From a bacterium (GTDB lineage: Bacteria > Bacteroidota > Ignavibacteria > UBA10030), in contig JAZDJN010000005.1 in the NCBI GenBank assembly GCA_043803945.1, positions 1 through 17,439 on the forward strand: 17,439 bases of DNA. Direction: 5' to 3'. A model generated the notes under the pieces. It was not told the DNA's origin. It saw only the letters and a list, made by a program, of their open reading frames with translations, and made no database searches. The translations under genes were made by a program, and so were the position numbers. This document shows positions 1,458 to 17,307 of this stretch, piece by piece (the stretch's first letter is position 1; every line of letters starts with the position of its first letter).

Positions 1458-1823
1458 CTACTTCTTCAATTTTACATTCAACACCGACAAGAGTTTCGAA
1501 AGTGAAAATGGTTTTGGAATATAGTCTTCTTCACTCAGTTTCATTTTATCGATAAGGTGTTCCGGATTCGGGTCCGCCGTCAGAAAAACAAACGGGATCG
1601 GAGAGAGCTGCGGATCGTTTCGGAACTCCTGGAAGGTTTCAAATCCATCCATAACCGGCATTGTAACATCGCAGATGATCAGATGCGGAAGTTCAGCACG
1701 TGCAAGTGCCAGGCCCTCGGCTCCATGTTCGGCAAGAATCACCTGATAGCCTAACTTCTCAAGAGTCTTCTGGATAACCAGCCTCGTTGTTCGATCATCA
1801 TCAATGATCAGTATTTTCTGCAT
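1458..1823 (-). CDS. Single-domain response regulator receiver (CheY-like)
   Basis: KILIIDDD acidic pocket, LIICDVTMPVMDG phosphoacceptor Asp, FLTA and YIPKPF motifs. Start placed at the ATG at 1823 (GGAGG upstream) rather than 1868. Confidence 0.9.
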   Translation of the reverse strand: MQKILIIDDDRTTRLVIQKTLEKLGYQVILAEHGAEGLALARAELPHLIICDVTMPVMDGFETFQEFRNDPQLSPIPFVFLTADPNPEHLIDKMKLSEEDYIPKPFSLSKLLSVLNVKLKK

Positions 1824-1929
1824 TGCCTCCTCCTTCGACTTCTCAAGACGATCATGCACAGAAACCAACTTAGTGGCTCACATTACGCAAAAACAAAAAA
1901 TAAGACTCTTTGAAAGAAAATCTGGCCGC

Positions 1930-1965
1930 CCTGCCCGACTTAGAGTATCCGCTTGGGCAGGCGGG
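1930..1965. repeat. 36-nt palindromic mini-repeat, copy B
   Basis: CCTGCCCGAC-N15-GGGCAGGCGGG. Related shorter or variant copies lie near 1361-1381, 2070-2128 and 7148-7208. Confidence 0.7.
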
Positions 1966-2180
1966 CAAGTGCGCCCCAGCCCGCCATGCGGTCTGGCGGG
2001 AAGAATTTTATTATTTGATTGTTTTCATAAGGATCTGAACATCTATCACACTTAAATCTTGGTGTTTTGCCTGCCTGCTGCAGGCAGGGCGTTCTTGCCC
2101 GCCTGTGCGCCGCTTGCGGCGGGCAGGGCGGCAAATCTTTCTCTTTTTCTGATCTTACTCAGTTCCATGCGTAACATAAG

Positions 2181-7372: not shown

Positions 7373-7657
7373 ATGCAAATCTCCAGAGAGGTTGTGCGAT
7401 ATAAGCCATTACTCGATCGAATGGTTGCGGAATTAAAGCTCAGGGACTATCCAACCAGAGATCGAGTTCTCACACTGTCAAACAGGACAGGCCGATATGA
7501 GACCATCGAGTCAAATCGGAGCTGTAGACGCGCAATCGTTCAACCTGCCTCTTCTCAACAAACCACACAGTGCATCCTTACCATTGAGCTCCGCAAGTGT
7601 GAATTCATTCTCAAAGATATTCAAGACAACTTTTTCGCGAGAGCGTTCCGTGGCTGA
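7373..7657 (+). CDS. Possible small or degenerate integrase N-terminal (SAM-like) domain ORF
   Basis: KPLLDRMVAELKLRDY resembles the recombinase N-terminus KKLFDVLGQEMRLRNY. Its stop lies just after the GTG at 7650. Could be a pseudogene remnant. Confidence 0.35.
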   Translation: MQISREVVRYKPLLDRMVAELKLRDYPTRDRVLTLSNRTGRYETIESNRSCRRAIVQPASSQQTTQCILTIELRKCEFILKDIQDNFFARAFRG

Positions 7658-8513
7658 GAAACCGAAAAAACTGTTTGATGTTTTGGGGCAGGAGATGAGA
7701 CTGAGAAACTACAGTCCTGAGACCATCAAAGCGTATAAATGCTGCATTCGATCGCTCGCCGCTTTCGTCGCGCCAAAGCATCCTCGTGATTTAACCGGTG
7801 AAGATATACGTAAATTTTTGGTCTATCAAGTTGACTTCAAGAAGCTCTCATCTGGAACGATCACCCAGATGATCAACGCGTTTCGATTTCTCTATGTCGA
7901 GATGTATAAACGGCCACTGGTTTTGACCGACCTCAAGCGCCCCCGTAAGGAATATAAACTTCCGGTAGTTCTTTCAGAAGAAGAGGTGAAATCGTTATTT
8001 GAGTCATTGGGAAACATTAAACATCGTGCGATGATGATGCTTGTCTATTCGGCGGGATTGCGGGTTCGAGAGTTAGTGCAGTTAAGGCCTGAGGATATTG
8101 ACAGTGATCGAAAGATGATTCACATCCACGGGGGCAAGAAAAAGAAGGATCGATATACAATTCTTGCTGATGTTGTGTTACAGGGATTGCGAGAGTATTG
8201 GAAAGCATACAGACCCAAGCAGTGGTTATTTGAGGGACGGAGAGAGGGCAAACCATATTCTCGGCGAAGTGCGGAGAAGGTATTTGAAAATGCAAAGGAG
8301 AAAGCGGGTATTTGCAAGCGAGTTTCGATTCATTCTCTGCGGCACGCTTTTGCAACTCATTTATTGGAACAGGGAACAGATATTCGATTCATACAGGAGC
8401 TTCTTGGGCACAGTAGTGTACGGACGACAGAGATCTACACACATGTGAGTAAGAGAAGAATTGAGGCGATCAAGAGCCCGATTGAACAGGTCATGCAGAA
8501 GAAACGGACATAA
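7650..8513 (+). CDS. Tyrosine recombinase, integron-integrase-like (N-terminal SAM_4-type domain plus catalytic domain), lacking the IntI-specific insertion
   Basis: EMRLRNYSPETIKAY N-domain and LPVVLSEEEV. Catalytic residues R (GLRVRE), K (GGKKKKDR), HSLRH, LLGH and Y (TTEIYTHV) are intact. The frame is open from ATG 7497, but similarity starts near GTG 7650, so the start is uncertain. Confidence 0.9.
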   Translation: MAEKPKKLFDVLGQEMRLRNYSPETIKAYKCCIRSLAAFVAPKHPRDLTGEDIRKFLVYQVDFKKLSSGTITQMINAFRFLYVEMYKRPLVLTDLKRPRKEYKLPVVLSEEEVKSLFESLGNIKHRAMMMLVYSAGLRVRELVQLRPEDIDSDRKMIHIHGGKKKKDRYTILADVVLQGLREYWKAYRPKQWLFEGRREGKPYSRRSAEKVFENAKEKAGICKRVSIHSLRHAFATHLLEQGTDIRFIQELLGHSSVRTTEIYTHVSKRRIEAIKSPIEQVMQKKRT

Positions 8514-8583
8514 TCACACTTTTTATTCGCCCATGAACCACATTGTGTTACAAACACGCAATTCGATATTGCAATAGTTATGC
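8514..8583 (+). other. Predicted attI-like primary recombination site (crossover G8577|TT)
   Basis: GTTATGC core at 8577-8583, 63 bp after the recombinase stop, with no attC body upstream. The sequence after it is the imperfect reverse complement of the sequence before the first attC (8996-9025), as at every other cassette start. It is preceded by the palindrome TATTGCAATA. The left boundary is uncertain. Confidence 0.7.
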
Positions 8584-9018
8584 GCGATGGGCTCGGGGCG
8601 TGCACGTTGGTTGAAGACAGCAGAACAAGAACGTCGTGGTGCTTTGCACCACGGCGAGCGAGTATTCATCAAAAAAAGTGGGAATCGATAGAGTTGCCTG
8701 GAATGAACAAAGTGTCGAATGGTAGTGAGTGACCGTCTCATTTGAGACATTCGTGAATTGAGAATATATTGAACTGATAAGGACAGGTATTGTGGAGAGA
8801 TTTCGTTACTCGTCTGAGTGTCTTGCTTGTAGGTCACTCACGAACAGAAGACACTTTGTTCAACACCAAAAAGTCTCTTTTAGTTCCCATTTTTTTGCTG
8901 CATCCACGGTGAAGCTGTGTCTGACTCGCTCTACATTCTTGTTCTATTATAGGAGGTAAGAAGAGACGACGAGGTTGATCGGAGGTCAACAACGGAACGT
9001 GTACCCCTCGCCCACCTC

Positions 9019-9165
9019 GCATAACAATACGGCAAAATGACGCTCGCTCTTTTATACAACCTCCCTAAAGCATTGTGCTCGCTCCATTGCAGCGCAGAAG
9101 GTGAGCTACAATACTAAGAAAGAAGTCAGTTTGCGCTGCAACGGCATTTTGCCTGTACGTTATGC
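9019..9165 (+). repeat. attC-like site 1
   Basis: GCATAAC...GTTATGC with inner stem GGCAAAATG/CATTTTGCC and conserved CGCTCGC and GTGCTCGCTCCA motifs. Confidence 0.9.
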
Positions 9166-9206
9166 GCCACCAATGGCGATCAATTCACTTAAACTAGGAG
9201 AAATCT

Positions 9207-9488
9207 ATGGCAAAAATTTTCGTTGTCGATCAGGAGCACAAAGCCGACGTAAAGGTCTATGCAACAAGCCAAGAATATTCTGCCGACCTTCTATATCACA
9301 TCGTTGACCAAGAGTACAATGCCAAAGGTGATGTGCTCTGGTTCTACGTTAGTGCAGAATATCAGTCTACCTGTAAGATATTCTGGGTTGACCAAGAACA
9401 CAGAGCCGATCTCAAAGTGTTCAAGGTTGATCAAGAGTACCAAGCAAAATGGAATAAGAATCATCGTTTTCAGAACAGACTAGGATAA
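9207..9488 (+). CDS. Small internally repetitive protein, DUF6150-like (cassette gene)
   Basis: 93 aa with AGGAG RBS and repeated (I/V)(F/Y)xVDQE(H/Y)xAD units. Confidence 0.7.
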   Translation: MAKIFVVDQEHKADVKVYATSQEYSADLLYHIVDQEYNAKGDVLWFYVSAEYQSTCKIFWVDQEHRADLKVFKVDQEYQAKWNKNHRFQNRLG

Positions 9489-9495
9489 ACAAGCC

Positions 9496-10038
9496 ATGCC
9501 ATTCTTTATCTATACCATCGACAAGCAATCCAACGAACTTGAATCTTTCTCCAGTCCCAAAGAAATATCTTTGGCAGGTGCAGCAGGACCGATCGCTAAG
9601 TTCGTTCGCAGCAAGATCAACAGTAGCACAAGACCACCTTTTGAGTGGCACATGACCGAACTTGAGCTTGTGCACTCCCTTGGCTTCACCGACGAAGAAA
9701 CATTTTATCGTGCTGTTATCATCGACCTGAAACCAGGGGACAAGTCTCACGCTCACCTTTATAGGATTCGAGACATCTGGGGATACACCTACTCCGATTG
9801 GACTCCTATTTGTGTTCGCCTTGAGGAACTACGGATCGATTCGAAGGTTTCTCCTAATGTTATCAAGAAAGGATTCACAGTATCCGGGTATCTCAACGAT
9901 CCCGTAATTGAGTTTCTCTATCTTCGTGGTGGATTGGATACGAAAGGTTGGCCGTGGGGGCCAGTTGGCTCTGTAAATGGTGTGTTGCTTTGGCCTGATG
10001 CGTTGAAATATTTTTTGTCTGCCATTGGCGGCGCATAA
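9496..10038 (+). CDS. Hypothetical protein (second gene of the same cassette)
   Basis: 180 aa, starting 7 bp after the previous stop. Its TAA lies inside the GCATAAC box of attC2, a typical cassette arrangement. Confidence 0.75.
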   Translation: MPFFIYTIDKQSNELESFSSPKEISLAGAAGPIAKFVRSKINSSTRPPFEWHMTELELVHSLGFTDEETFYRAVIIDLKPGDKSHAHLYRIRDIWGYTYSDWTPICVRLEELRIDSKVSPNVIKKGFTVSGYLNDPVIEFLYLRGGLDTKGWPWGPVGSVNGVLLWPDALKYFLSAIGGA

Positions 10039-10189
10039 CAAACGGCAAACCGGCGCTCGCACACTGGATAGGCGAAGTTGAAACGATGGTTGGCTAGATG
10101 TAAAGTGCTCGCTCCATTGCTCGCCGCCGCAAGGGATGAGTCTTTCATATGCGGCGGCTCACAACGGCGGTTTGCCTTGAACGTTAGCC
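10033..10189 (+). repeat. attC-like site 2
   Basis: GCATAAC...GTTAGCC with stem GGCAAACCG/CGGTTTGCC. Confidence 0.9.
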
Positions 10190-10308
10190 GCCATGCGGCA
10201 CGATTTGGTCAGCTCCAGATTTGGGGAACGCATTTAGCAAAGTGCTAAACAGTAGCTCGCCGCATGCGAGCCAAGAATTGTCAATCAACCCTGGAGGTGC
10301 TAAGTTTC

Positions 10309-11484
10309 ATGCAATGCTTAGGGAGGACGAAAAGAGGGAGATGCAAACTTTCCGTGAACGAACTCTGGCCGTTCTGTTCTCATCATACATGGCAGCCATT
10401 TGTCACGGCATTTGCTGTCCTGAGTGTCATAGGGGTATTTCTTGCGTTCTATAATGATCTGCGCGAGGCAATTCTTGAGCCTCTCAAATCCTCGAACATG
10501 AACGCAGATGCAATCCAAAACGACGGTTTCTTGGAAATGAAGTCCCTAAGGACATTCCAAGGCCCTTTCTATAGCTGCAACATGTTCATCCCGATATTCC
10601 ACATTATGAACTTGCGAAGCGAGGAACTTGTAGTTTCGCAGATTGACTTCTACTTTGTGAATCCGAAGGTACAAGAGCTAATTCCAGGTTTTCCGGCAGA
10701 TCGCTACGGTAGCTACTTCCACTTAAAGCACTCTGGAGGCTACTGGAGAGCCAACGAAGAACGCGTTGTGATGTCAGACTCTTTTCCCACCGGCCCCGTT
10801 TTCATTCCTCGCGAAGTTTACGTGGAGATCTATCATTCGGGATCAGAGGCCGGATCACACTTTCGCTTTGCTCTAAGCAATGACAAAGACGTCGAGTACT
10901 GGACAAAGCCAAGGCATATTGATTTCGATAAGTTGGATGTTGGCATAGATAGATTGCACGCATATCGGCAGGCAAAAGATTTTGCAGACCAGCTGATGCA
11001 CACCAAGGGACTGGCAATGGGTATTCCGATGAAGACAATCGCGACCAAGCTGCCAAACGCATTGGACAACGTAGCGATCACCGAATGGGGTTTCTTGTTT
11101 GCAGGTTTTCAAGAAGGTCGAGGGATATGGGTAAACATTGACAGTGCCGGGGCTAGAGGAGGTGTGGTCACCTCGATATCACACCCCGATCTTTGCGCGT
11201 TCCTAGTAAGAGCATCGACAAAACCGCTCATTATTGGCACCCGTCAGGCAGTATCAATCGCTGATCAGAACAATCTCATCTTTGCAAATACTTGCCAAGG
11301 AGTCTGGCTTGAGCCGGACGGCTTAGTTGGCGAAGAAAGGCATCCGATCTGGAAACTCCCGTATGTAGGTAGCAACTATATGACACTTTTCATAGATGGG
11401 TTCACAGGCGAAGTTCTCGAAGAGGATTTGGAATATCAACGAAAGGGTAAAGGCCCACCATGGAGATTTCGAACTAAAAAGTGA
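10309..11484 (+). CDS. Hypothetical membrane-anchored protein with an N-terminal Cys/His motif
   Basis: Start placed at ATG 10309 (GGAGGT upstream; the frame is open from 10264). CLGRTKRGRC...FCSHH is a putative Zn-binding motif, followed by one TM helix. The C-terminal W...FIDGFTGEVL is reminiscent of PepSY-like ends. Confidence 0.7.
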   Translation: MQCLGRTKRGRCKLSVNELWPFCSHHTWQPFVTAFAVLSVIGVFLAFYNDLREAILEPLKSSNMNADAIQNDGFLEMKSLRTFQGPFYSCNMFIPIFHIMNLRSEELVVSQIDFYFVNPKVQELIPGFPADRYGSYFHLKHSGGYWRANEERVVMSDSFPTGPVFIPREVYVEIYHSGSEAGSHFRFALSNDKDVEYWTKPRHIDFDKLDVGIDRLHAYRQAKDFADQLMHTKGLAMGIPMKTIATKLPNALDNVAITEWGFLFAGFQEGRGIWVNIDSAGARGGVVTSISHPDLCAFLVRASTKPLIIGTRQAVSIADQNNLIFANTCQGVWLEPDGLVGEERHPIWKLPYVGSNYMTLFIDGFTGEVLEEDLEYQRKGKGPPWRFRTKK

Positions 11485-11645
11485 GCAACCTTGACTGAGG
11501 ACAACCGCGATTGGCTCCCACAATCTGAAGAAAAAGAAGGGTCTACTCTCGTCGGATGATGGTTCCAAGGCTGTTACAGCGATTTGACAATAATAGCGTG
11601 AGAATAGAAAAGCATAGCAGGCACACTTATCTTCAAGGAGACATT

Positions 11646-12218
11646 ATGAAATTGGTATTCGCACCGAGCGTCCTTATCGTGCTACTTTGCACCTACTTTG
11701 CGTGTAGTCAACAGAAAAAGCAAGCCAATCAACCTTTCATGATATCAATTGAAGGGGAAGTATTCCAAGAGAGTGATATCAACTTTTTGTATCCCGCGAA
11801 GAGTCAATTGGCTTACAGGGTCAAGGTAAGTCTAAAGAACACTGGAGAACAGACATTGGAGTTTGACCAAATCGAGACTGCGTTTGTACCACAGGGTGGA
11901 ACTCCATTGAAACAAATGAGTGGCATACGCAGAAAAGGATCACAACAAAATGAGAAGGTAACGCTGGAGCCAGGATCTGTCAAAGAGTTTCCAGCGTTTA
12001 CGAGCGATGGCTATACGAACGATCTCATAAGCGATGCCCGAGGTAGACCTCTAAGATTTTCAGTTTCGCTTCTTTCTTTGGGCCAACGCTTGTTCGGGCC
12101 AACCATGGCTGTCCTTCCTGATATCAAGAAGCTAAGTACTTTGCCTTCGTATCATCAATCCTTGTCCGACAAGAAAGTCAAGGGATTTCCATTGACTTTT
12201 TCGTTGTCAAGTCCGTAG
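11646..12218 (+). CDS. Hypothetical lipoprotein
   Basis: AAGGAG then ATG 11646, followed by a hydrophobic stretch ending YFAC (lipobox-like) and a beta-rich domain (VKVSLKNTGEQTL). Confidence 0.7.
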   Translation: MKLVFAPSVLIVLLCTYFACSQQKKQANQPFMISIEGEVFQESDINFLYPAKSQLAYRVKVSLKNTGEQTLEFDQIETAFVPQGGTPLKQMSGIRRKGSQQNEKVTLEPGSVKEFPAFTSDGYTNDLISDARGRPLRFSVSLLSLGQRLFGPTMAVLPDIKKLSTLPSYHQSLSDKKVKGFPLTFSLSSP

Positions 12219-12284
12219 CCTCCGAGGAAGAATGTGAAACATCATCAAAGGAATTATTGTTTTCAGCTTTTGTGCCGCACGAAC

Positions 12285-12428
12285 GGCTAACAAAACTAAG
12301 CACGCCGCTCGCACATTGGCAAGGCTCTCGCACGAGCCAACGCACGCGCAATAAGTTGTGCTCGCTCCACCCCGCCGTCAATTATAGAACATCGATGGCG
12401 GGGCGGCGTGCTTACTCGAACGTTAGGC
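12285..12428 (+). repeat. attC-like site 3 (divergent)
   Basis: GGCTAAC...GTTAGGC with stem TAAGCACGCCGC/GCGGCGTGCTTA. GTGCTCGCTCCA is retained. Confidence 0.88.
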
Positions 12429-12456
12429 GGCATTTGCCATCATAATGGAATGACAT

Positions 12457-12966
12457 ATGGATCGAAATGTTTCAATTGTGCCTTACTATCAATATCAGAG
12501 AGAGTATCAACGAATCAGGATTATTACTCCATTCTCAACACTATTTATTACTATCATTGTTGTCATTTTTTTTCTCATCGGAAATTGGATTTTCAAAGGA
12601 AAAGAAAGTCCTGATGATGCGTTAAAGATGAAGGTAAAAAAAATCGAGGACATTGGGGGAACGCTCGAAGATCTTTCCGAATACTTGCAACAACAGAAGA
12701 CTATTATCATCGCCCAGGATGAGCAGATCAAGAAGCTTAATAAGGCCAATCAGGATCTCGAGCCCATTGTCAAAGCAAAACAAGAGATCGTAGATGCGAT
12801 TATCTTCGAAGCCCAGAAGAAAGCTGAGGACAATTCCTGGCGAGACAGGTTAATTGGGATAGCAATTGGAATTATCAGTTCCTTGTTTGCTACTCTTATC
12901 TGGCATTTCTTCCTTGCAGACAAGTGGATTACTTCAAGAATGAAACCGAGAGCAAACTCAATATAG
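12457..12966 (+). CDS. Hypothetical membrane protein (two TM helices flanking a coiled coil)
   Basis: 169 aa that fills the cassette, with two hydrophobic segments and a heptad-like K/E/Q-rich middle. Confidence 0.75.
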   Translation: MDRNVSIVPYYQYQREYQRIRIITPFSTLFITIIVVIFFLIGNWIFKGKESPDDALKMKVKKIEDIGGTLEDLSEYLQQQKTIIIAQDEQIKKLNKANQDLEPIVKAKQEIVDAIIFEAQKKAEDNSWRDRLIGIAIGIISSLFATLIWHFFLADKWITSRMKPRANSI

Positions 12967-13010
12967 TACCTAATTAACGTAATCCTAAAGGAGTTTTCCT
13001 GGCAAACGCC

Positions 13011-13166
13011 GCCTAACAATCGGCAAACCGACGCTCGCTCTCTGTAGAAGCAAGAGTAAACCTAAGATTGGCTCGCTATAAAGAGCTCGCTCCATTGCTC
13101 GCCGCCGCAAGGAATGGATTTTTCGTATGCGGCGGTTCGCAACGGCGGTTTGCCTGAACGTTAGGC
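13011..13166 (+). repeat. attC-like site 4
   Basis: GCCTAAC...GTTAGGC with stem GGCAAACCG/CGGTTTGCC. Confidence 0.9.
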
Positions 13167-13222
13167 GCCACCGCAACTCACAATCGACATTTTTCTAACC
13201 ATATGGCTGAACACAAAACACT

Positions 13223-14029
13223 ATGGACAATCAACTTGCTCTAGGAAAGATTCGAAAATCCATTGCCGAAGCTCAAAATGCCTTTGAAGAAGCGGTCTTT
13301 TTAGGCCACCCTTCTGATCCGGCTTGGTCCATTGAAACCGCTTTCTTAATGACTCTCTCTCTTGTTGAATCTCTTGGTCTTCACAAGCTACATCAGATGC
13401 TCTTGTCAGATTTCAGAAAGATCAAGAATTCCAAAGAAGGCTTCTCCAAGGACGAGCAGGATGAATTCACCGAAGAACCATACCCAGTCCACCTTTCGAA
13501 GTTGCGTCAATACCTACATTCAATCGAATCATTTTTTCCAGATGACAAGGATACCATCGTTTCGAAAGACGTTCTGAACATATTACGAGACATCCATTAT
13601 ACGATTGCCGACAAAACTCTTTTTGGGTGTGCTCCGAGTTCAGAAAAGGATGTTCACCTGAGGATAGAGGGCATTTTGAAGCCATTGTTCCCCGATTTGA
13701 AACACAAGCCCTCGCTAACAAAACAGATCAAGAATTTCGAGCCTGATACTGGCATCCCCTCTATTAGGACACTCATAGAGTACAAGTATCTCGATTCCAA
13801 GAAGTCGATTCCCGTCCTTGCCGACCAAATCCTCGCAGACACTCGAGGCTATGTGTCTAAGGAATGGAATCGTTTCATCTATGTCGTATATGAGACCAAC
13901 CGATTTCGATCAGAGAAGGATTGGAATCAGTTACTTGCTCAGTCCGGTTTATCAGACAACTCAGTGGTTGTAGTCCTTAGCGGTGAACCATCAAGGAAGA
14001 CGGCACGACGAAGATCTCAAATGAGTTGA
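13223..14029 (+). CDS. Putative PD-(D/E)XK nuclease with a DpnII/MboI-like C-terminal domain
   Basis: 268 aa with SEKDVH...ILKPLFPD...FEPDTGIPSIRTLIEYKY...QILADTRGY, giving an E...PD...ExK arrangement. The N-terminal domain is helical. Confidence 0.65.
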   Translation: MDNQLALGKIRKSIAEAQNAFEEAVFLGHPSDPAWSIETAFLMTLSLVESLGLHKLHQMLLSDFRKIKNSKEGFSKDEQDEFTEEPYPVHLSKLRQYLHSIESFFPDDKDTIVSKDVLNILRDIHYTIADKTLFGCAPSSEKDVHLRIEGILKPLFPDLKHKPSLTKQIKNFEPDTGIPSIRTLIEYKYLDSKKSIPVLADQILADTRGYVSKEWNRFIYVVYETNRFRSEKDWNQLLAQSGLSDNSVVVVLSGEPSRKTARRRSQMS

Positions 14030-14061
14030 CTTTTCTTCATGATTTCTAGGAATGCGGCGGC

Positions 14062-14219
14062 GCCTAACAATCGTGCTTGCGACGCTCGCTCGTTTGGTTA
14101 TGTCGAATAGGAATCTAAACAACGGTATATCAATTGTGCTCGCTCCATGCCGTCCGGCCACGAGAAATGAATCATTCTTACGTGGCCGGTCGGCACGGCG
14201 GTTTGCCTGTACGTTATGC
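14062..14219 (+). repeat. attC-like site 5 (chimeric, inner arms not complementary)
   Basis: GCCTAAC...GTTATGC. The left arm GTGCTTGCG faces the right arm CGGTTTGCC. Confidence 0.85.
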
Positions 14220-14244
14220 GCAATTGGCTTGTGGAGCGTTTCCT

Positions 14245-14814
14245 ATGAAAACCCTTCGTCTTGTTCGCTCGACACACTATCTCGTGGTTGCAATGAGCTT
14301 ACTGCTCGGCCAATCCAGCCTGGAAGCACAACAATCATCAAGTGCTGCTGCGGAGGACTGCCCCATTTGGATGAACATCGGTATGGGTGGCGGGTCAACT
14401 GGTGTCTCGCTCGGAACAAGCCTTTCCTATGAACTTGAGAGTAGCCTCCTCACTCTTCGCTATATTTACAATAAAGAAATAGAATTGTTGGGAGATTCCA
14501 CCCCCTGGGAATCAGTCTCTGACATCGGCGTCCTTTATGGCATCATGACCAAAGCATCATACGGGATGGCTTCCTTATCTGCAGGTATTAGTACTGTCAG
14601 AGGAGTTCGCCGAGGCGGGTTCATAGCAAAGACTGGATTGTTTTCAACCACGTACGCGGAGATACGCTTTTCTACCGCGGGAATCCCATTGGAGGGACGA
14701 CTATATTGGCGGACTTCGTCTAGCTTCGGAATCGGCATATATGTCGTCGGAAATCTGAATGATCAGAAGTCCTTCATCGCTGCGCAACTCTCTGTTGAAG
14801 GAACACTGTGGTAG
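14245..14814 (+). CDS. Hypothetical secreted protein, probable outer-membrane beta-barrel
   Basis: GGAG then ATG 14245, signal peptide ending LEA-Q, Gly/aromatic amphipathic strands and a terminal W. Confidence 0.65.
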   Translation: MKTLRLVRSTHYLVVAMSLLLGQSSLEAQQSSSAAAEDCPIWMNIGMGGGSTGVSLGTSLSYELESSLLTLRYIYNKEIELLGDSTPWESVSDIGVLYGIMTKASYGMASLSAGISTVRGVRRGGFIAKTGLFSTTYAEIRFSTAGIPLEGRLYWRTSSSFGIGIYVVGNLNDQKSFIAAQLSVEGTLW

Positions 14815-14828
14815 CACAAGCCAACTGC

Positions 14829-14984
14829 GCCTAACAAACGGCAACACGGCGCTCGCACGCTGGATAGGCATGGGAGAGGCTAGGATTGGCTAAATGTTAA
14901 GTGCTCGCTCCATTGCTCGCCGCCACAGCTTACCGGTCATTCGATTGTGGCGGCTCGCAACGGCGTGTTGCCTAAACGTTAGGC
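14829..14984 (+). repeat. attC-like site 6
   Basis: GCCTAAC...GTTAGGC with covaried stem GGCAACACG/CGTGTTGCC. Confidence 0.9.
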
Positions 14985-15017
14985 GCAACGCTTCGTCACT
15001 GGACATTTGAGGGCGTC

Positions 15018-15875
15018 ATGAATTCTTCCACCATGTTCGCTAGGATCGTCTTCACCTCCGCCGTTCTGACCGTGCCACTGTTTTCCCAGTACGCTCAAAT
15101 GGAATTCCCTCTACAAGTAGGTGATCGCTGGCAATTCTCCGAAGTCCAGGGACCGCCGGGCGTCGAAGAGTCGCGGGTCATTAGTGAGGCAATCATGGCG
15201 AATGGGCTCAAGTACGCGGTGATCGCCGGCTCGATGGCAGCAGGTAATTATCGCAAAGAAGGATCCAAGGTTTACCAGTGGATATCCTCGGCTGATAGGC
15301 TCATCTGCGATTTCTCGAAGAAGCCAGGAGACACATTGGCTGTTTATCCAAACGGTCCCGATTCCACAATGGTTGTTGTTATGGATCAGGGCCTCTGGAT
15401 GTGTTTCGACCAACTGCGCTTTCAAATGAGGTTCAAACACGTCAGTTATCGATCTCCGGGGCACATAAGAGCCATTTACCACGTCGCGGACAGCGTGGGT
15501 TTCGTCAGGCTGGACCAGGAGACCGTACATTTTTGGCTCGTCGGCGCTGTCATCAACAGCAGACAGTTCGGTCTCGTAACTTCCATTGCCAAGGCTCAAT
15601 CGGATATGCCCACCGGTGCTCAACTCTTGCAGAATTATCCGAATCCGTTCAATGCTACCACAATGATCTCTTTTCGCATCAACGTGGCATCTGAGGTTTC
15701 GATCAGAATCCATGATCTTATGGGTCGCAAGATTGCCTTGGTGCTGTCTAGACATCTTCTGGCCGGTTCATACAGCCTCAACTGGGATGCTTCACTGTGT
15801 CCAAGCGGTGTCTACTTCTGCAACCTTGTCGCTGGCTCGACGGTGAAGACGACAACGATGATTCTGCTCAAATAA
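15018..15875 (+). CDS. Secreted protein with a T9SS type A C-terminal sorting domain
   Basis: Signal peptide. The C-terminus reads LLQNYPNPFNATTMISF...IHDLMGRKI...WDAS..PSGVYFCNL...TMILLK. Confidence 0.88.
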   Translation: MNSSTMFARIVFTSAVLTVPLFSQYAQMEFPLQVGDRWQFSEVQGPPGVEESRVISEAIMANGLKYAVIAGSMAAGNYRKEGSKVYQWISSADRLICDFSKKPGDTLAVYPNGPDSTMVVVMDQGLWMCFDQLRFQMRFKHVSYRSPGHIRAIYHVADSVGFVRLDQETVHFWLVGAVINSRQFGLVTSIAKAQSDMPTGAQLLQNYPNPFNATTMISFRINVASEVSIRIHDLMGRKIALVLSRHLLAGSYSLNWDASLCPSGVYFCNLVAGSTVKTTTMILLK

Positions 15876-15889
15876 GCACGAAGCGCTGC

Positions 15890-16045
15890 GCCTAACAAAC
15901 GGCAAACCGGCGCTCGCACGCTGTATAGGCGGGGGAAGTACAAGAGTGGCTAAATGTAAAGTGCTCGCTCCATTGCTCGCCGCCACAGCCATTGAGTCTG
16001 TTCGATAGTGGCGGCTCGCAACGGCGGTTTGCCTAAACGTTAGCC
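15890..16045 (+). repeat. attC-like site 7
   Basis: GCCTAAC...GTTAGCC with stem GGCAAACCG/CGGTTTGCC. Confidence 0.9.
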
Positions 16046-16081
16046 GCAACCGCTCGTAATAATTTTCTGAAAGGAATAACT

Positions 16082-16468
16082 ATGATATGTCCAGCTTGTA
16101 ATAATACAGCCACGACTGTATTCCGTGATCTCTATTCTCTTCAAGGAGTTACCATTTTCCAGAAGTACAAAGGGTATCTTAATTGCCATTCGTGTGGTGC
16201 GACTCTTCGTGTGGCTGGTTATGATAAAAGGATTTGGTACTACTACATCCCATTACTATTTATCATAGCGGTGTTCGTTTCATTCTATAATTCTTGGTCC
16301 CCAATAGTCTTATCTTGGCTCGAAATCATCGGGCCAGTTGCAACAGTTATTATATCTTTCTGTTTAATCATCCTTATTCCTTTCATAATTGATTATAGCT
16401 TCTTGAAGTATGCTCGTGTCGAGATAACTGGTAATCCCGCTAGCTCGACGATAGGAGTTCATACCTGA
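16082..16468 (+). CDS. Zinc-ribbon (CxxC...CxxC) membrane protein with two TM helices
   Basis: CPAC...CHSC followed by two hydrophobic segments, with an AAGGA RBS. Confidence 0.75.
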   Translation: MICPACNNTATTVFRDLYSLQGVTIFQKYKGYLNCHSCGATLRVAGYDKRIWYYYIPLLFIIAVFVSFYNSWSPIVLSWLEIIGPVATVIISFCLIILIPFIIDYSFLKYARVEITGNPASSTIGVHT

Positions 16469-16497
16469 TTTTTCAATTGTATCTCACGAGCGGCTGC

Positions 16498-16649
16498 GGC
16501 TAACAATCGGCAAACCGACGCTCGCTTGCTGTAAAGTCTTAAACGAACCAAACAGGGCTTGATAAATTGTGCTCGCTCCATTGCTCGCCGCCACGGAATG
16601 AATTAGTCATAGTGGCGGCTCGCAACGGCGGTTTGCCTAAACGTTAGGC
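16498..16649 (+). repeat. attC-like site 8
   Basis: GGCTAAC...GTTAGGC with stem GGCAAACCG/CGGTTTGCC. Confidence 0.9.
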
Positions 16650-16742
16650 GGCATGTGGCTTTTGTAAGTTGATAAGATGTACCATGCTATTCAATGAGAA
16701 GTAGTTATCCATCATATTCTTACATTAGGAGGAGATAACCTT

Positions 16743-17096
16743 ATGCGCCGCAAAGATTATATGTTCATGCTGATTCTTGTTATGCTTTCAAGTTTCCTAG
16801 GTGGAGCCTTCATGAGTTGGTTGCTTTTAGATAAGGTAGCCTTTGCTCAGGTCGATGATAAACCGGCAACAATAATCAGGGCTAAGGCTTTCCAATTAGT
16901 GGATGATAGAGGGAGGATCCGAGCTAATCTATCTTGTTATAATCCTTCAAAGGTTGTAAATAAACGTATAAATGATTCGGTAATGCATTCTCAGATAGAA
17001 GTGCGTCAGGATGAAGTGAGGTTTGAATTGATGGATGCGAGTGGGACGATAGTCTGGTCAGCTCCTCAATCATTTAAACCAACATTTATCAAATAA
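16743..17096 (+). CDS. Hypothetical exported or membrane-anchored protein
   Basis: AGGAGGAG RBS, N-terminal hydrophobic segment ending AFA-Q, and an IRAKAFQLVDDRGRIRA motif. Confidence 0.75.
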   Translation: MRRKDYMFMLILVMLSSFLGGAFMSWLLLDKVAFAQVDDKPATIIRAKAFQLVDDRGRIRANLSCYNPSKVVNKRINDSVMHSQIEVRQDEVRFELMDASGTIVWSAPQSFKPTFIK

Positions 17097-17151
17097 ATGT
17101 TATTGGCTATAATAAATTTCAATCTAGAGACATAACTATATGCCACACGCC

Positions 17152-17307
17152 GCCTAACAATCGTGCTTGCGACGCTCGCTCATCTGGTTATGTCGAATAG
17201 GAATCTACATGGCGGTATGTCAATTGAGCTCGCTCCATTTCGTGCCGCCACGGAATTGAGCTTTTATAGTGGCGTCACTCAACGGCGCAAGCACTCAGAC
17301 GTTATGT
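17152..17307 (+). repeat. attC-like site 9
   Basis: GCCTAAC...GTTATGT with stem GTGCTTGCG/CGCAAGCAC. Confidence 0.9.

Follow-up and report, generated by a model that had tools for sequence, protein, structure and literature searches.

Does an array of attC-like repeats without the bulged bases of canonical attC sites belong to an integron when the recombinase encoded beside it has no IntI additional domain? This question is raised by the 17,439-nt stretch of DNA analyzed here (the window), which is the entire contig JAZDJN010000005.1, 17.4 kb of a 5.5-Mb draft genome from a bacterium of the Ignavibacteria (UBA10030). The gene for a short tyrosine recombinase is followed on the same strand by nine attC-like repeats of 144–158 nt each, located between 9019 and 17,307 on the + strand, and the units between the repeats hold open reading frames (ORFs); the array runs off the contig end at 17,439. 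We consider it probable that the window represents the recombinase-proximal end of a chromosomal cassette array belonging to an integron variant, in which a short recombinase without the additional domain recognizes its sites in a manner unlike that of the canonical enzymes. The sites have a distinctive anatomy that is conserved among relatives and pairs exclusively with the short type of recombinase, and the cassettes between them are bounded at GTT.

Anatomy of the attC-like sites

All nine sites in the window shared one layout, consisting of RYYTAAC, a spacer of 4–5 nt, L'', an interior region, L', a spacer of 5–7 nt, and GTTAKGY. The consensus features of attC (the R'', L'', L', and R' boxes, RYYYAAC and GTTRRRY ends, and an unpaired central spacer) were found in the nine sites; the feature of attC not found was the group of two or three extrahelical bases that lie within or beside the L box on the arm opposite the AAC, the first and last being 6 bp apart. 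The L stem was perfectly complementary in eight sites, over 9 bp in seven of them and over 12 bp in site 3. Five different L-stem sequences occurred across these eight intact sites, each altered on both sides, indicating that pairing had been kept through changes on both sides, and the recurrence of the perfect stem is far beyond chance. An earlier reading of this DNA, made from its letters only (the sequence-only reading), had described a stem of at least 9 bp, uninterrupted after the AAC and a 4–5-nt spacer, in eight of the nine sites, and had stated that it covaried between copies. Both statements held, as all five stem pairs it quoted were present and perfectly complementary, and covariation extended from the five stem sequences in eight sites to 38 distinct L sequences in a set of 57 sites that included relatives. 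The L box of the remaining site, the chimeric site 5, cannot pair because its L'' is of the site-9 type and its L' of the site-2 type.

Both strands of each site were folded with DNA parameters, using the minimum free energy (MFE) structure and the partition function. The L stem was present in the MFE structures of both strands, and its mean pair probability was 0.93–1.00 on both strands in all eight intact sites. The sequence-only reading had named a stable fold with a conserved bulge at the canonical place as a result that would overturn it; no such fold was found on either strand, and ensemble folding of the eight intact sites gave no competing fold with a bulged base inside the L box.

Read inward, the bottom-strand MFE structures comprised the R box where it was paired, the spacer, the L stem of 9–12 bp, a junction with 0 nt on one arm versus 44–63 nt on the other, and a second helix of 5–13 bp; in site 9, the R box was unformed in the in-array fold. 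The AAC-bearing (5') arm of the bottom strand passed from the L stem directly into the second helix with no unpaired bases between them, and on the opposite (3') arm 44–63 nt were unpaired or separately folded before rejoining. This one-sided branch was present in all eight intact sites, with the first base of the second helix paired at a probability of 0.62–0.94 in the bottom-strand ensemble, and it was flanked by two invariant copies of GCTCGC. The branch is located on the arm on which canonical attC sites have their extrahelical bases (the L'' arm). In canonical sites these bases lie on the arm opposite the bottom-strand AAC, with a G at 16 and a conserved T at 23 or 24, 6 bp apart (PMC5027507), and the branch begins after 9 bp, which is our own count, from that numbering, of the pairs between the spacer and the last canonical bulge. 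In addition, the second helix places CCA against CGG, so that the bottom strand has a G.T pair where the top strand has an A.C mismatch. The claim in the sequence-only reading that extrahelical bases were missing is thus correct within the L box and fails beyond it, where the 44–63-nt branch occupies the arm of the canonical bulges.

RNAalifold, run on a MAFFT alignment of the nine sites, missed the L stem because the alignment columns are disrupted by the chimeric site and by shifts of one column, and the stems were instead parsed by anchors in scripts. A genome-wide scan for AAC...GTT palindromes with stems of at least 7 bp was dropped, as it returned 126 matches against 152 in a reversed-sequence control. 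Further chimeric sites were seen elsewhere in this genome, on contigs C15 (35919–36108), C40 (44668–44840), and C83 (4652–4811); in these, too, the L'' and L' belong to different types and the L box is unpairable. The chimeric sites look like products of homologous exchange within the conserved middle of two sites and would be dead ends for site-specific recombination.

The short recombinase and its sites in relatives

Pfam identified two domains in the recombinase, Phage_integrase (catalytic) and Phage_int_SAM_4 (PF13495, the IntI-type N-terminal domain). The integron-integrase model TIGR02249 matched it in two pieces with 214.9 bits, against a cut-off of 265. The XerA model NF040815 was barely passed (224.3 bits, cut-off 220), and the cut-offs of the XerC (193 versus 335) and XerD (192.5 versus 330) models were not reached. 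By sequence, the best solved relative was VchIntIA (2a3v), which aligned in two blocks separated by 26 residues here versus 68 in VchIntIA. In an alignment of 15 recombinases, the additional domain was present in the five canonical IntI sequences (IntI1, one from a cyanobacterium, and three from relatives) and the window protein had a gap at that position; the same gap was seen in seven further short recombinases and in both of this genome's XerC/D-like proteins. The AlphaFold (AF2) model, built from a 27-row alignment with a mean predicted local distance difference test score of 80.1, matched 2a3v first and XerA second in the PDB. In the sequence alignment to 2a3v, the equivalent of W157, the VchIntIA residue that contacts extrahelical G20'' (PMC2095811), is a His. 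The IntI-specific additional domain around patch III, which the integron definition requires, was not found. As judged from these comparisons of its sequence, the window recombinase is IntI-like, but without the approximately 40-residue IntI additional domain. Its nearest named relatives are encoded in metagenome-assembled genomes (MAGs) of Bacteroidota and Ignavibacteriota. A second recombinase open frame in this genome (contig C65, 24486–25291) was also matched by the integron-integrase model in two pieces, with the additional-domain part absent, and no array was seen near it.

Of 60 related genomes from the same order, 22 encoded an orthologue of the short recombinase (48–61% identity). Sites were sought in 15 short-recombinase loci, comprising the downstream DNA of 14 orthologues and one locus from a named Ignavibacteriota MAG, using sequence profiles that need no base pairing to score. 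The search produced 70 parsable sites, in which the uninterrupted L run counted from the spacer was 11 bp in 38 sites, 10 bp in seven, and 12 bp in four (10–12 bp in 49 of 70). The other 21 sites, with runs of 8 bp or less, were partial matches, chimeras, or failed parses. Sites with a run of at least 9 bp were present in 11 of the 15 loci, always 3' of the recombinase gene and on the same strand, and three of the four loci without such arrays have at most 1.7 kb of downstream DNA. Gapped alignment of the arms was rejected for site detection because the arms of short-type sites diverge after 9–12 bp, which caused these sites to score low.

The 49 sites from relatives together with the eight from the window form the set of 57 sites with an L run of at least 9 bp. 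A helix of at least 7 bp abutted the L' arm in 41 of these 57 sites; when the test was mirrored to the other arm, two of the 57 had such a helix, and shuffled interiors averaged about 4 bp. The central spacer was unequal, 2 nt versus 5 nt, in 43 of the 57 sites, and the bottom strand folded more stably than the top in 37 of the 49 sites from relatives.

Similar sites were also found beside more distant enzymes. A Leptospira locus, whose enzyme is 46% identical to that of the window, had a GTTATGC junction followed by two sites, each 162 nt long and built to the same plan. At 40–46% identity, short recombinases with at least one nearby site having a perfect 9–11-bp L stem were found in a Leptospira sp. 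(locus L010), a Spirochaetota MAG (L022), a Bacteroidia MAG (L031), and two Patescibacteria (L044 and L071). Both Patescibacteria loci have this site upstream of the recombinase gene and in the opposite orientation. The single sites in the Spirochaetota, Bacteroidia, and Patescibacteria loci are too thin to claim arrays, and the alphaproteobacterial, archaeal, and most other loci of short recombinases with 35–50% identity showed no clear arrays.

Canonical integrons are found in the same order and indeed in the same genome. Complete canonical integrons are on record in Ignavibacteriae and Chlorobi (PMC9024848), and archaeal integrons have been reported with the IntI-specific domain (PMC9668308). 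In our set the TIGR02249 cut-off was passed in 23 of 61 genomes, and 11 genomes carried both enzyme types. Ten sites beside the canonical intI genes of four relatives had one-base gaps, all on one arm, in the pattern stem, 1, 6 bp, 1 in seven of the ten; the bottom-strand folds showed 0 versus 1 nt, 6 bp, and 0 versus 1 nt. The arrays in those four loci diverge from intI, as they do in textbook integrons. Two profiles of the short-type sites gave no matches in 26 canonical loci, and a canonical-type profile, built from sites of relatives, gave none in the 15 short loci and 28 in the canonical loci. In the genome of the window, the canonical-type profile matched at six places, none of them on the window's contig. 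Scanning this genome for canonical-type sites with the gapped method was abandoned as noise (5 versus 4).

The canonical intI of this genome was found in pieces: contigs C45 and C70 each end in an N-terminal part, and a C-terminal part that includes the additional domain is on C41. The gene on C41 is interrupted by a 294-nt insert (1710–2003, minus strand) exactly between the RHS and FATH of the catalytic motif. Inverted repeats of 11 bp form the termini of this insert, which contains a GIY-YIG-like ORF of about 88 aa, and an Rfam scan of the C41 locus gave no match and found no intron. Approximately 900 nt 3' of the C41 fragment is one of the six canonical-type matches, a site that folds with two classical bulges. 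Taken together with the short-type array of the window, the canonical intI and bulged site on C41 indicated that both systems are present in this genome and that each has its own type of site.

These findings bear on the proposal in the sequence-only reading that the missing bulges match the missing IntI insertion. The match itself stands, based on the 11 of 15 short-enzyme loci with bulge-free arrays and the canonical IntI beside bulged sites; what does not stand is the implied freedom from strand-asymmetric features, since the sites have a one-sided branch of 44–73 nt, the unequal central spacer, and the G.T (bottom) or A.C (top) positions. A different mode of recognition may well have co-evolved with the short enzyme.

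Might the window instead hold an ordinary integron array (a cluster of attC sites lacking an integron-integrase, or CALIN, in IntegronFinder terms) that is served in trans by a canonical IntI encoded elsewhere, with the short recombinase an unrelated Xer-like neighbour? The pieces of canonical intI on C45, C70, and C41 and the 11 relatives with both recombinase types would suit such an arrangement, as would the report that IntI1 recombines some attC sites well after deletion of their extrahelical bases (PMC5027507). We regard it as improbable, however, because in 11 of 15 loci the short gene and the array have kept the same order, strand, and junction motif, and the sites beside canonical intI are a different family, with bulges, whose profile does not cross-hit with those of the short type. 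In addition, the canonical intI of this genome is interrupted, and five genomes with short-type arrays (G010, G030, G033, G045, and G060) gave no TIGR02249 match at E ≤ 1e-40, although, as these genomes are 90–98% complete, canonical IntI is to be taken as not found in them rather than absent.

Cassette boundaries and a proposed mechanism

Evidence on where the cassettes begin and end came from copies of one cassette at the Ignavibacteriota locus L014, where a 321-nt cassette is present four times. The copies share the sequence from GTTAGCC to a terminal GTTA and differ on both flanks. Three of them follow different attC-like sites; the fourth follows non-repeat DNA, 26 nt past the recombinase stop codon, and starts exactly at the junction GTTA. 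The crossover would on this evidence lie in the GTT of R', with boundaries that are compatible with G↓TT and mapped to within GTTA, not to the bond. The junction motif, a palindrome around ACGCAAT and then GTTA, was found in the window and in most of 13 other short-recombinase loci, at 25–110 nt past the stop codon, with the palindrome clear in about seven of those 13. The motif lies downstream of the recombinase gene. In the window, DNA from 8577 onward and the R'' flank of site 1 are complementary at 18 of 26 positions, and it is plausible that the junction (Table 1) serves as attI.

Table 1. Recombinase gene, junction, attC-like sites, and cassettes of the window
Feature	Position	Strand	Details
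Short IntI-like tyrosine recombinase	7497..8513	+	ORF 338 aa; gene call in protein collection 287 aa, 7650–8510
Putative attI-like junction	8553..8583	+	Small imperfect palindrome, then GTTATGC 8577–8583; 64 nt past recombinase stop codon
attC-like site 1	9019..9165	+	L stem GGCAAAATG, 9 bp
attC-like site 2	10033..10189	+	L stem GGCAAACCG, 9 bp
attC-like site 3	12285..12428	+	L stem TAAGCACGCCGC, 12 bp
attC-like site 4	13011..13166	+	L stem GGCAAACCG, 9 bp
Chimeric site 5	14062..14219	+	5' half site-9 type (88% identity over 105 nt), 3' half site-2 type; L box unpairable
attC-like site 6	14829..14984	+	L stem GGCAACACG, 9 bp
attC-like site 7	15890..16045	+	L stem GGCAAACCG, 9 bp
attC-like site 8	16498..16649	+	L stem GGCAAACCG, 9 bp
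attC-like site 9	17152..17307	+	L stem GTGCTTGCG, 9 bp; last site before contig end
Nine cassettes	8578..17301	+	Bounds at G of GTT: 8577, 9159, 10183, 12422, 13160, 14213, 14978, 16039, 16643, 17301

The two ends of each cassette were also found to be complementary to each other. In eight of the nine cassettes of the window, the first 26 nt, counted from the preceding GTT, were complementary to the 26 nt ending at the cassette's own AAC at 17–21 of 26 positions, and the R' and R'' flanks paired within the array matched at 9–12 of 26 in eight of the nine sites. The same complementarity was picked up as inverted repeats I1, I6, and I15–I17 of the window. In relatives, the median alignment score was 14 for the ends of the same cassette (23 of 38 scored at least 14) versus 4 for in-array pairs (3 of 48). 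End-to-end complementarity that starts at GTT is a signature of units cut at GTT and closed into circles, and in the excised form it would produce an R helix some 19 bp long. All nine window cassettes have, on one side of this helix at position 11, an A where pairing needs a G, which leaves the top strand with A.C and the bottom strand with G.T. Cassette 3 has an extra base beside this position, and relatives have a second class of cassette with one extra base at it.

Based on these observations, we propose that the cassettes move as in integrons. The site would fold as single-stranded DNA and be cut and exchanged at the G↓TT of R', with either the attI-like site or a further attC as its partner. 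We infer recombination of a single strand because the complementarity maintained between L'' and L', within the second helix, and between the cassette ends otherwise has no use. The enzyme would see two regular duplex arms, the R arm and an uninterrupted L arm of 9–12 bp, across the unequal unpaired spacer; binding to two regular arms, Xer-like on a core site, is what would be expected of an enzyme without the domain that reads bulged bases. There is precedent in Xer recombinases, which have no IntI domain and exchange one strand pair between folded single-stranded phage DNA and the chromosome (PMC3442271). In canonical sites, the choice of strand and orientation and the silencing of the L-bound subunit have been attributed to the extrahelical bases (PMC4792948). 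Here, the branch, the unequal spacer, and the wobble positions might perform these tasks in place of single bulges. We infer only, in this scheme, the single-stranded substrate, the strand that is used, and which among the branch, the spacer, and the wobble is the feature read.

An alternative is that the short recombinase uses the repeats as double-stranded Xer-type sites, with two strand exchanges and no role for hairpin folding. Regular arms of approximately 10–11 bp resemble Xer core arms, a likeness that counts in favor of this alternative. The domain missing from the enzyme is held to have enabled single-strand recombination (PMC7790495), and IntI itself can still act on double strands, an activity that is ancestral (PMC4792948). 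In a duplex site, L'' and L' need not be complementary, yet 38 different L sequences were perfectly complementary across the 57 sites, and the second helix and the cassette end-to-end complementarity were maintained as well. For these reasons we consider use of the repeats as duplex sites very improbable.

The repeats lie between convergently ordered ORFs and fold stably, as would also be expected if they were structural or regulatory intergenic elements, such as terminators or hairpins like those of repetitive extragenic palindromic elements, with no role in recombination. This explanation appears extremely improbable: the repeats carry the integron R''/R' consensus, each unit holds one or two ORFs, cassette copies bounded in GTTA occupy different array positions, including one beside the recombinase gene, the ends of the cassettes are complementary to each other, and Rfam found no known RNA family in the window.

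Several observations weigh against the integron variant that we favor. NCBIfam places the window recombinase just over the XerA (NF040815) cut-off. Among the intact sites of the window, the bottom strand was the more stable in just one of eight and the top strand in five of eight, with a median difference of +0.7 kcal/mol. Genome-wide, just 13 of 43 profile matches had the perfect 9-bp stem and many of the other copies were chimeric or partial, and part of the array may be decaying. The canonical intI pieces of this genome could conceivably act in trans, although that copy is interrupted. Finally, the sole public run found has short contigs only, with three joints whose 21–26-nt sides are unable to show excision. 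In that run, from a peat metagenome, 6% of sampled words were found; its short contigs covered mainly the attC-like repeats, with varied flanks, and included cassette 7 at 97–99% identity, with coverage within window positions 9745–16779.

Upstream of the recombinase gene in the window are a uvrA-like gene and then an S37 peptidase gene. A short G+C-rich repeat and inverted-repeat family (CCCTGCCCG ... GGGCAGGCGGGCA) lies upstream of the uvrA-like gene (381–419, 1372–1409, 1929–1967, and 2087–2155) and has no relation to the array. Eight of the nine cassettes contain one or two + strand ORFs, and cassette 1 is without an ORF of at least 60 aa. A 31-nt inverted repeat within cassette 1 (8704–8734 and 8832–8862) is 84% complementary with its copies 97 nt apart. 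In cassette 2, an ORF of 93 aa (9207–9488) contains a 24-nt unit four times at 9225–9449, which would encode a repeated peptide motif. Pfam identified a DpnII-MboI nuclease-like domain in ORF 13223–14029 of cassette 5 (E 2.3e-08), which may be a defence cassette, and a type IX secretion system (T9SS) sorting domain in ORF 15018–15875; the other cassette ORFs of the window had no Pfam match.

Evolution and comparison with known systems

The relationships among the recombinases were examined in a tree of 84 sequences and 299 columns, from a quick IQ-TREE search with support from the Shimodaira–Hasegawa-like approximate likelihood ratio test (SH-aLRT) only; own_C65, a fragment, was omitted. The 14 canonical IntI formed one clade with a support of 100 and a long stem, a sample that is narrow, as 12 of the 14 are from this order. 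The window enzyme fell within a clade of 35 short enzymes (support 97) that was not nested inside canonical IntI. Canonical IntI, the window's short clade, a Leptospira short clade, and other short enzymes formed a group with a support of 84–91, and the XerC/D-like proteins of this genome were outside the group that holds the window enzyme and IntI (SH-aLRT 91). Bulge-free arrays occurred in at least two of the short clades. The tree fits a lineage that never had the additional domain, and early loss of the domain is also possible.

The I2 or additional domain and the extrahelical bases are regarded as innovations for recombination of folded single strands and for correctly oriented insertion (PMC7790495, PMC5027507, PMC4792948). 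It is conceivable, though we hold it to be doubtful, that the short-recombinase arrays are a surviving proto-integron lineage. Arrays of folded attC sites would then predate the additional domain of IntI, and canonical integrons would have arisen from within, gaining the domain and the bulges together. Whatever its origin, a natural and widespread system seems to handle cassettes in the same way with neither the additional domain nor the bulges. Its coexistence with canonical integrons in one order and one genome offers a ready comparison of what the domain and the bulges are needed for. Surveys that require an IntI-specific profile would class such arrays as integrase-less clusters or miss them, and the cassette reservoirs of Ignavibacteria-like bacteria, Leptospira, and others may be under-counted. 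Our literature search, in which coverage of subscription journals was incomplete and supplements were outside the scope, found no description of arrays of cassettes associated with an integrase that lacks the additional domain.

In functional terms, the array would be an integron, but one that stands outside the accepted integron definition (IntegronFinder, Messier and Roy), because the IntI-specific domain and the extrahelical bases were both tested for and not found. Its likeness to canonical integrons includes a tyrosine recombinase beside an array of mostly promoterless-looking cassettes, RYYYAAC ... GTTRRRY ends, the unpaired central spacer, the L box, and cassette boundaries at GTT. The asymmetry of the sites is likewise on the arm opposite the bottom-strand AAC, and the best match of the enzyme, in both sequence and fold, is VchIntIA. 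Unlike canonical integrons, however, the enzyme has no additional domain, and in place of one-base bulges in the L box there is a one-sided branch of 14–86 nt after 9–12 bp. The spacer is 2 versus 5 nt in the relatives studied here, in contrast to five to six bases per arm in canonical attC (PMC5027507). Each cassette has an end-to-end complementarity of about 19 nt, and the attI-like junction lies downstream of the recombinase gene, which are further differences from the canonical arrangement.

Also comparable are the chromosomal integrons in which intI points towards the cassettes (Treponema and others), which similarly have gene and array on one strand and form sedentary chromosomal arrays in non-proteobacterial phyla. 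The enzymes known from the Treponema-type integrons are canonical IntI with the additional domain. Treponema has been named the sole spirochaete clade with integrons (PMC3607928), whereas short-type arrays were found here in Leptospira loci.

The action of Xer on folded phage single-stranded DNA, as in CTX phage and other integrative mobile elements exploiting Xer (IMEX), is similar in that one pair of strands is exchanged, at a folded hairpin mimicking a duplex core site, by a recombinase that has no IntI domain (PMC3442271). That system differs in its use of host XerC/XerD and dif for a one-off phage integration, with no dedicated recombinase accompanied by a cassette array. The Xer-type arrangement of a single dif-type site without a cassette array was not what we found, as arrays follow the recombinase gene in 11 of 15 loci. 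Archaeal XerA (NF040815) resembles the window enzyme in the score barely over the cut-off, a similar length, the lack of the IntI insertion, and its place as the second-best PDB match. The window enzyme differs from archaeal XerA in its bacterial host and in having a cassette array, not dif, as its context, and in the PDB sequence search the N-terminal half of IntI was matched more strongly than XerA.

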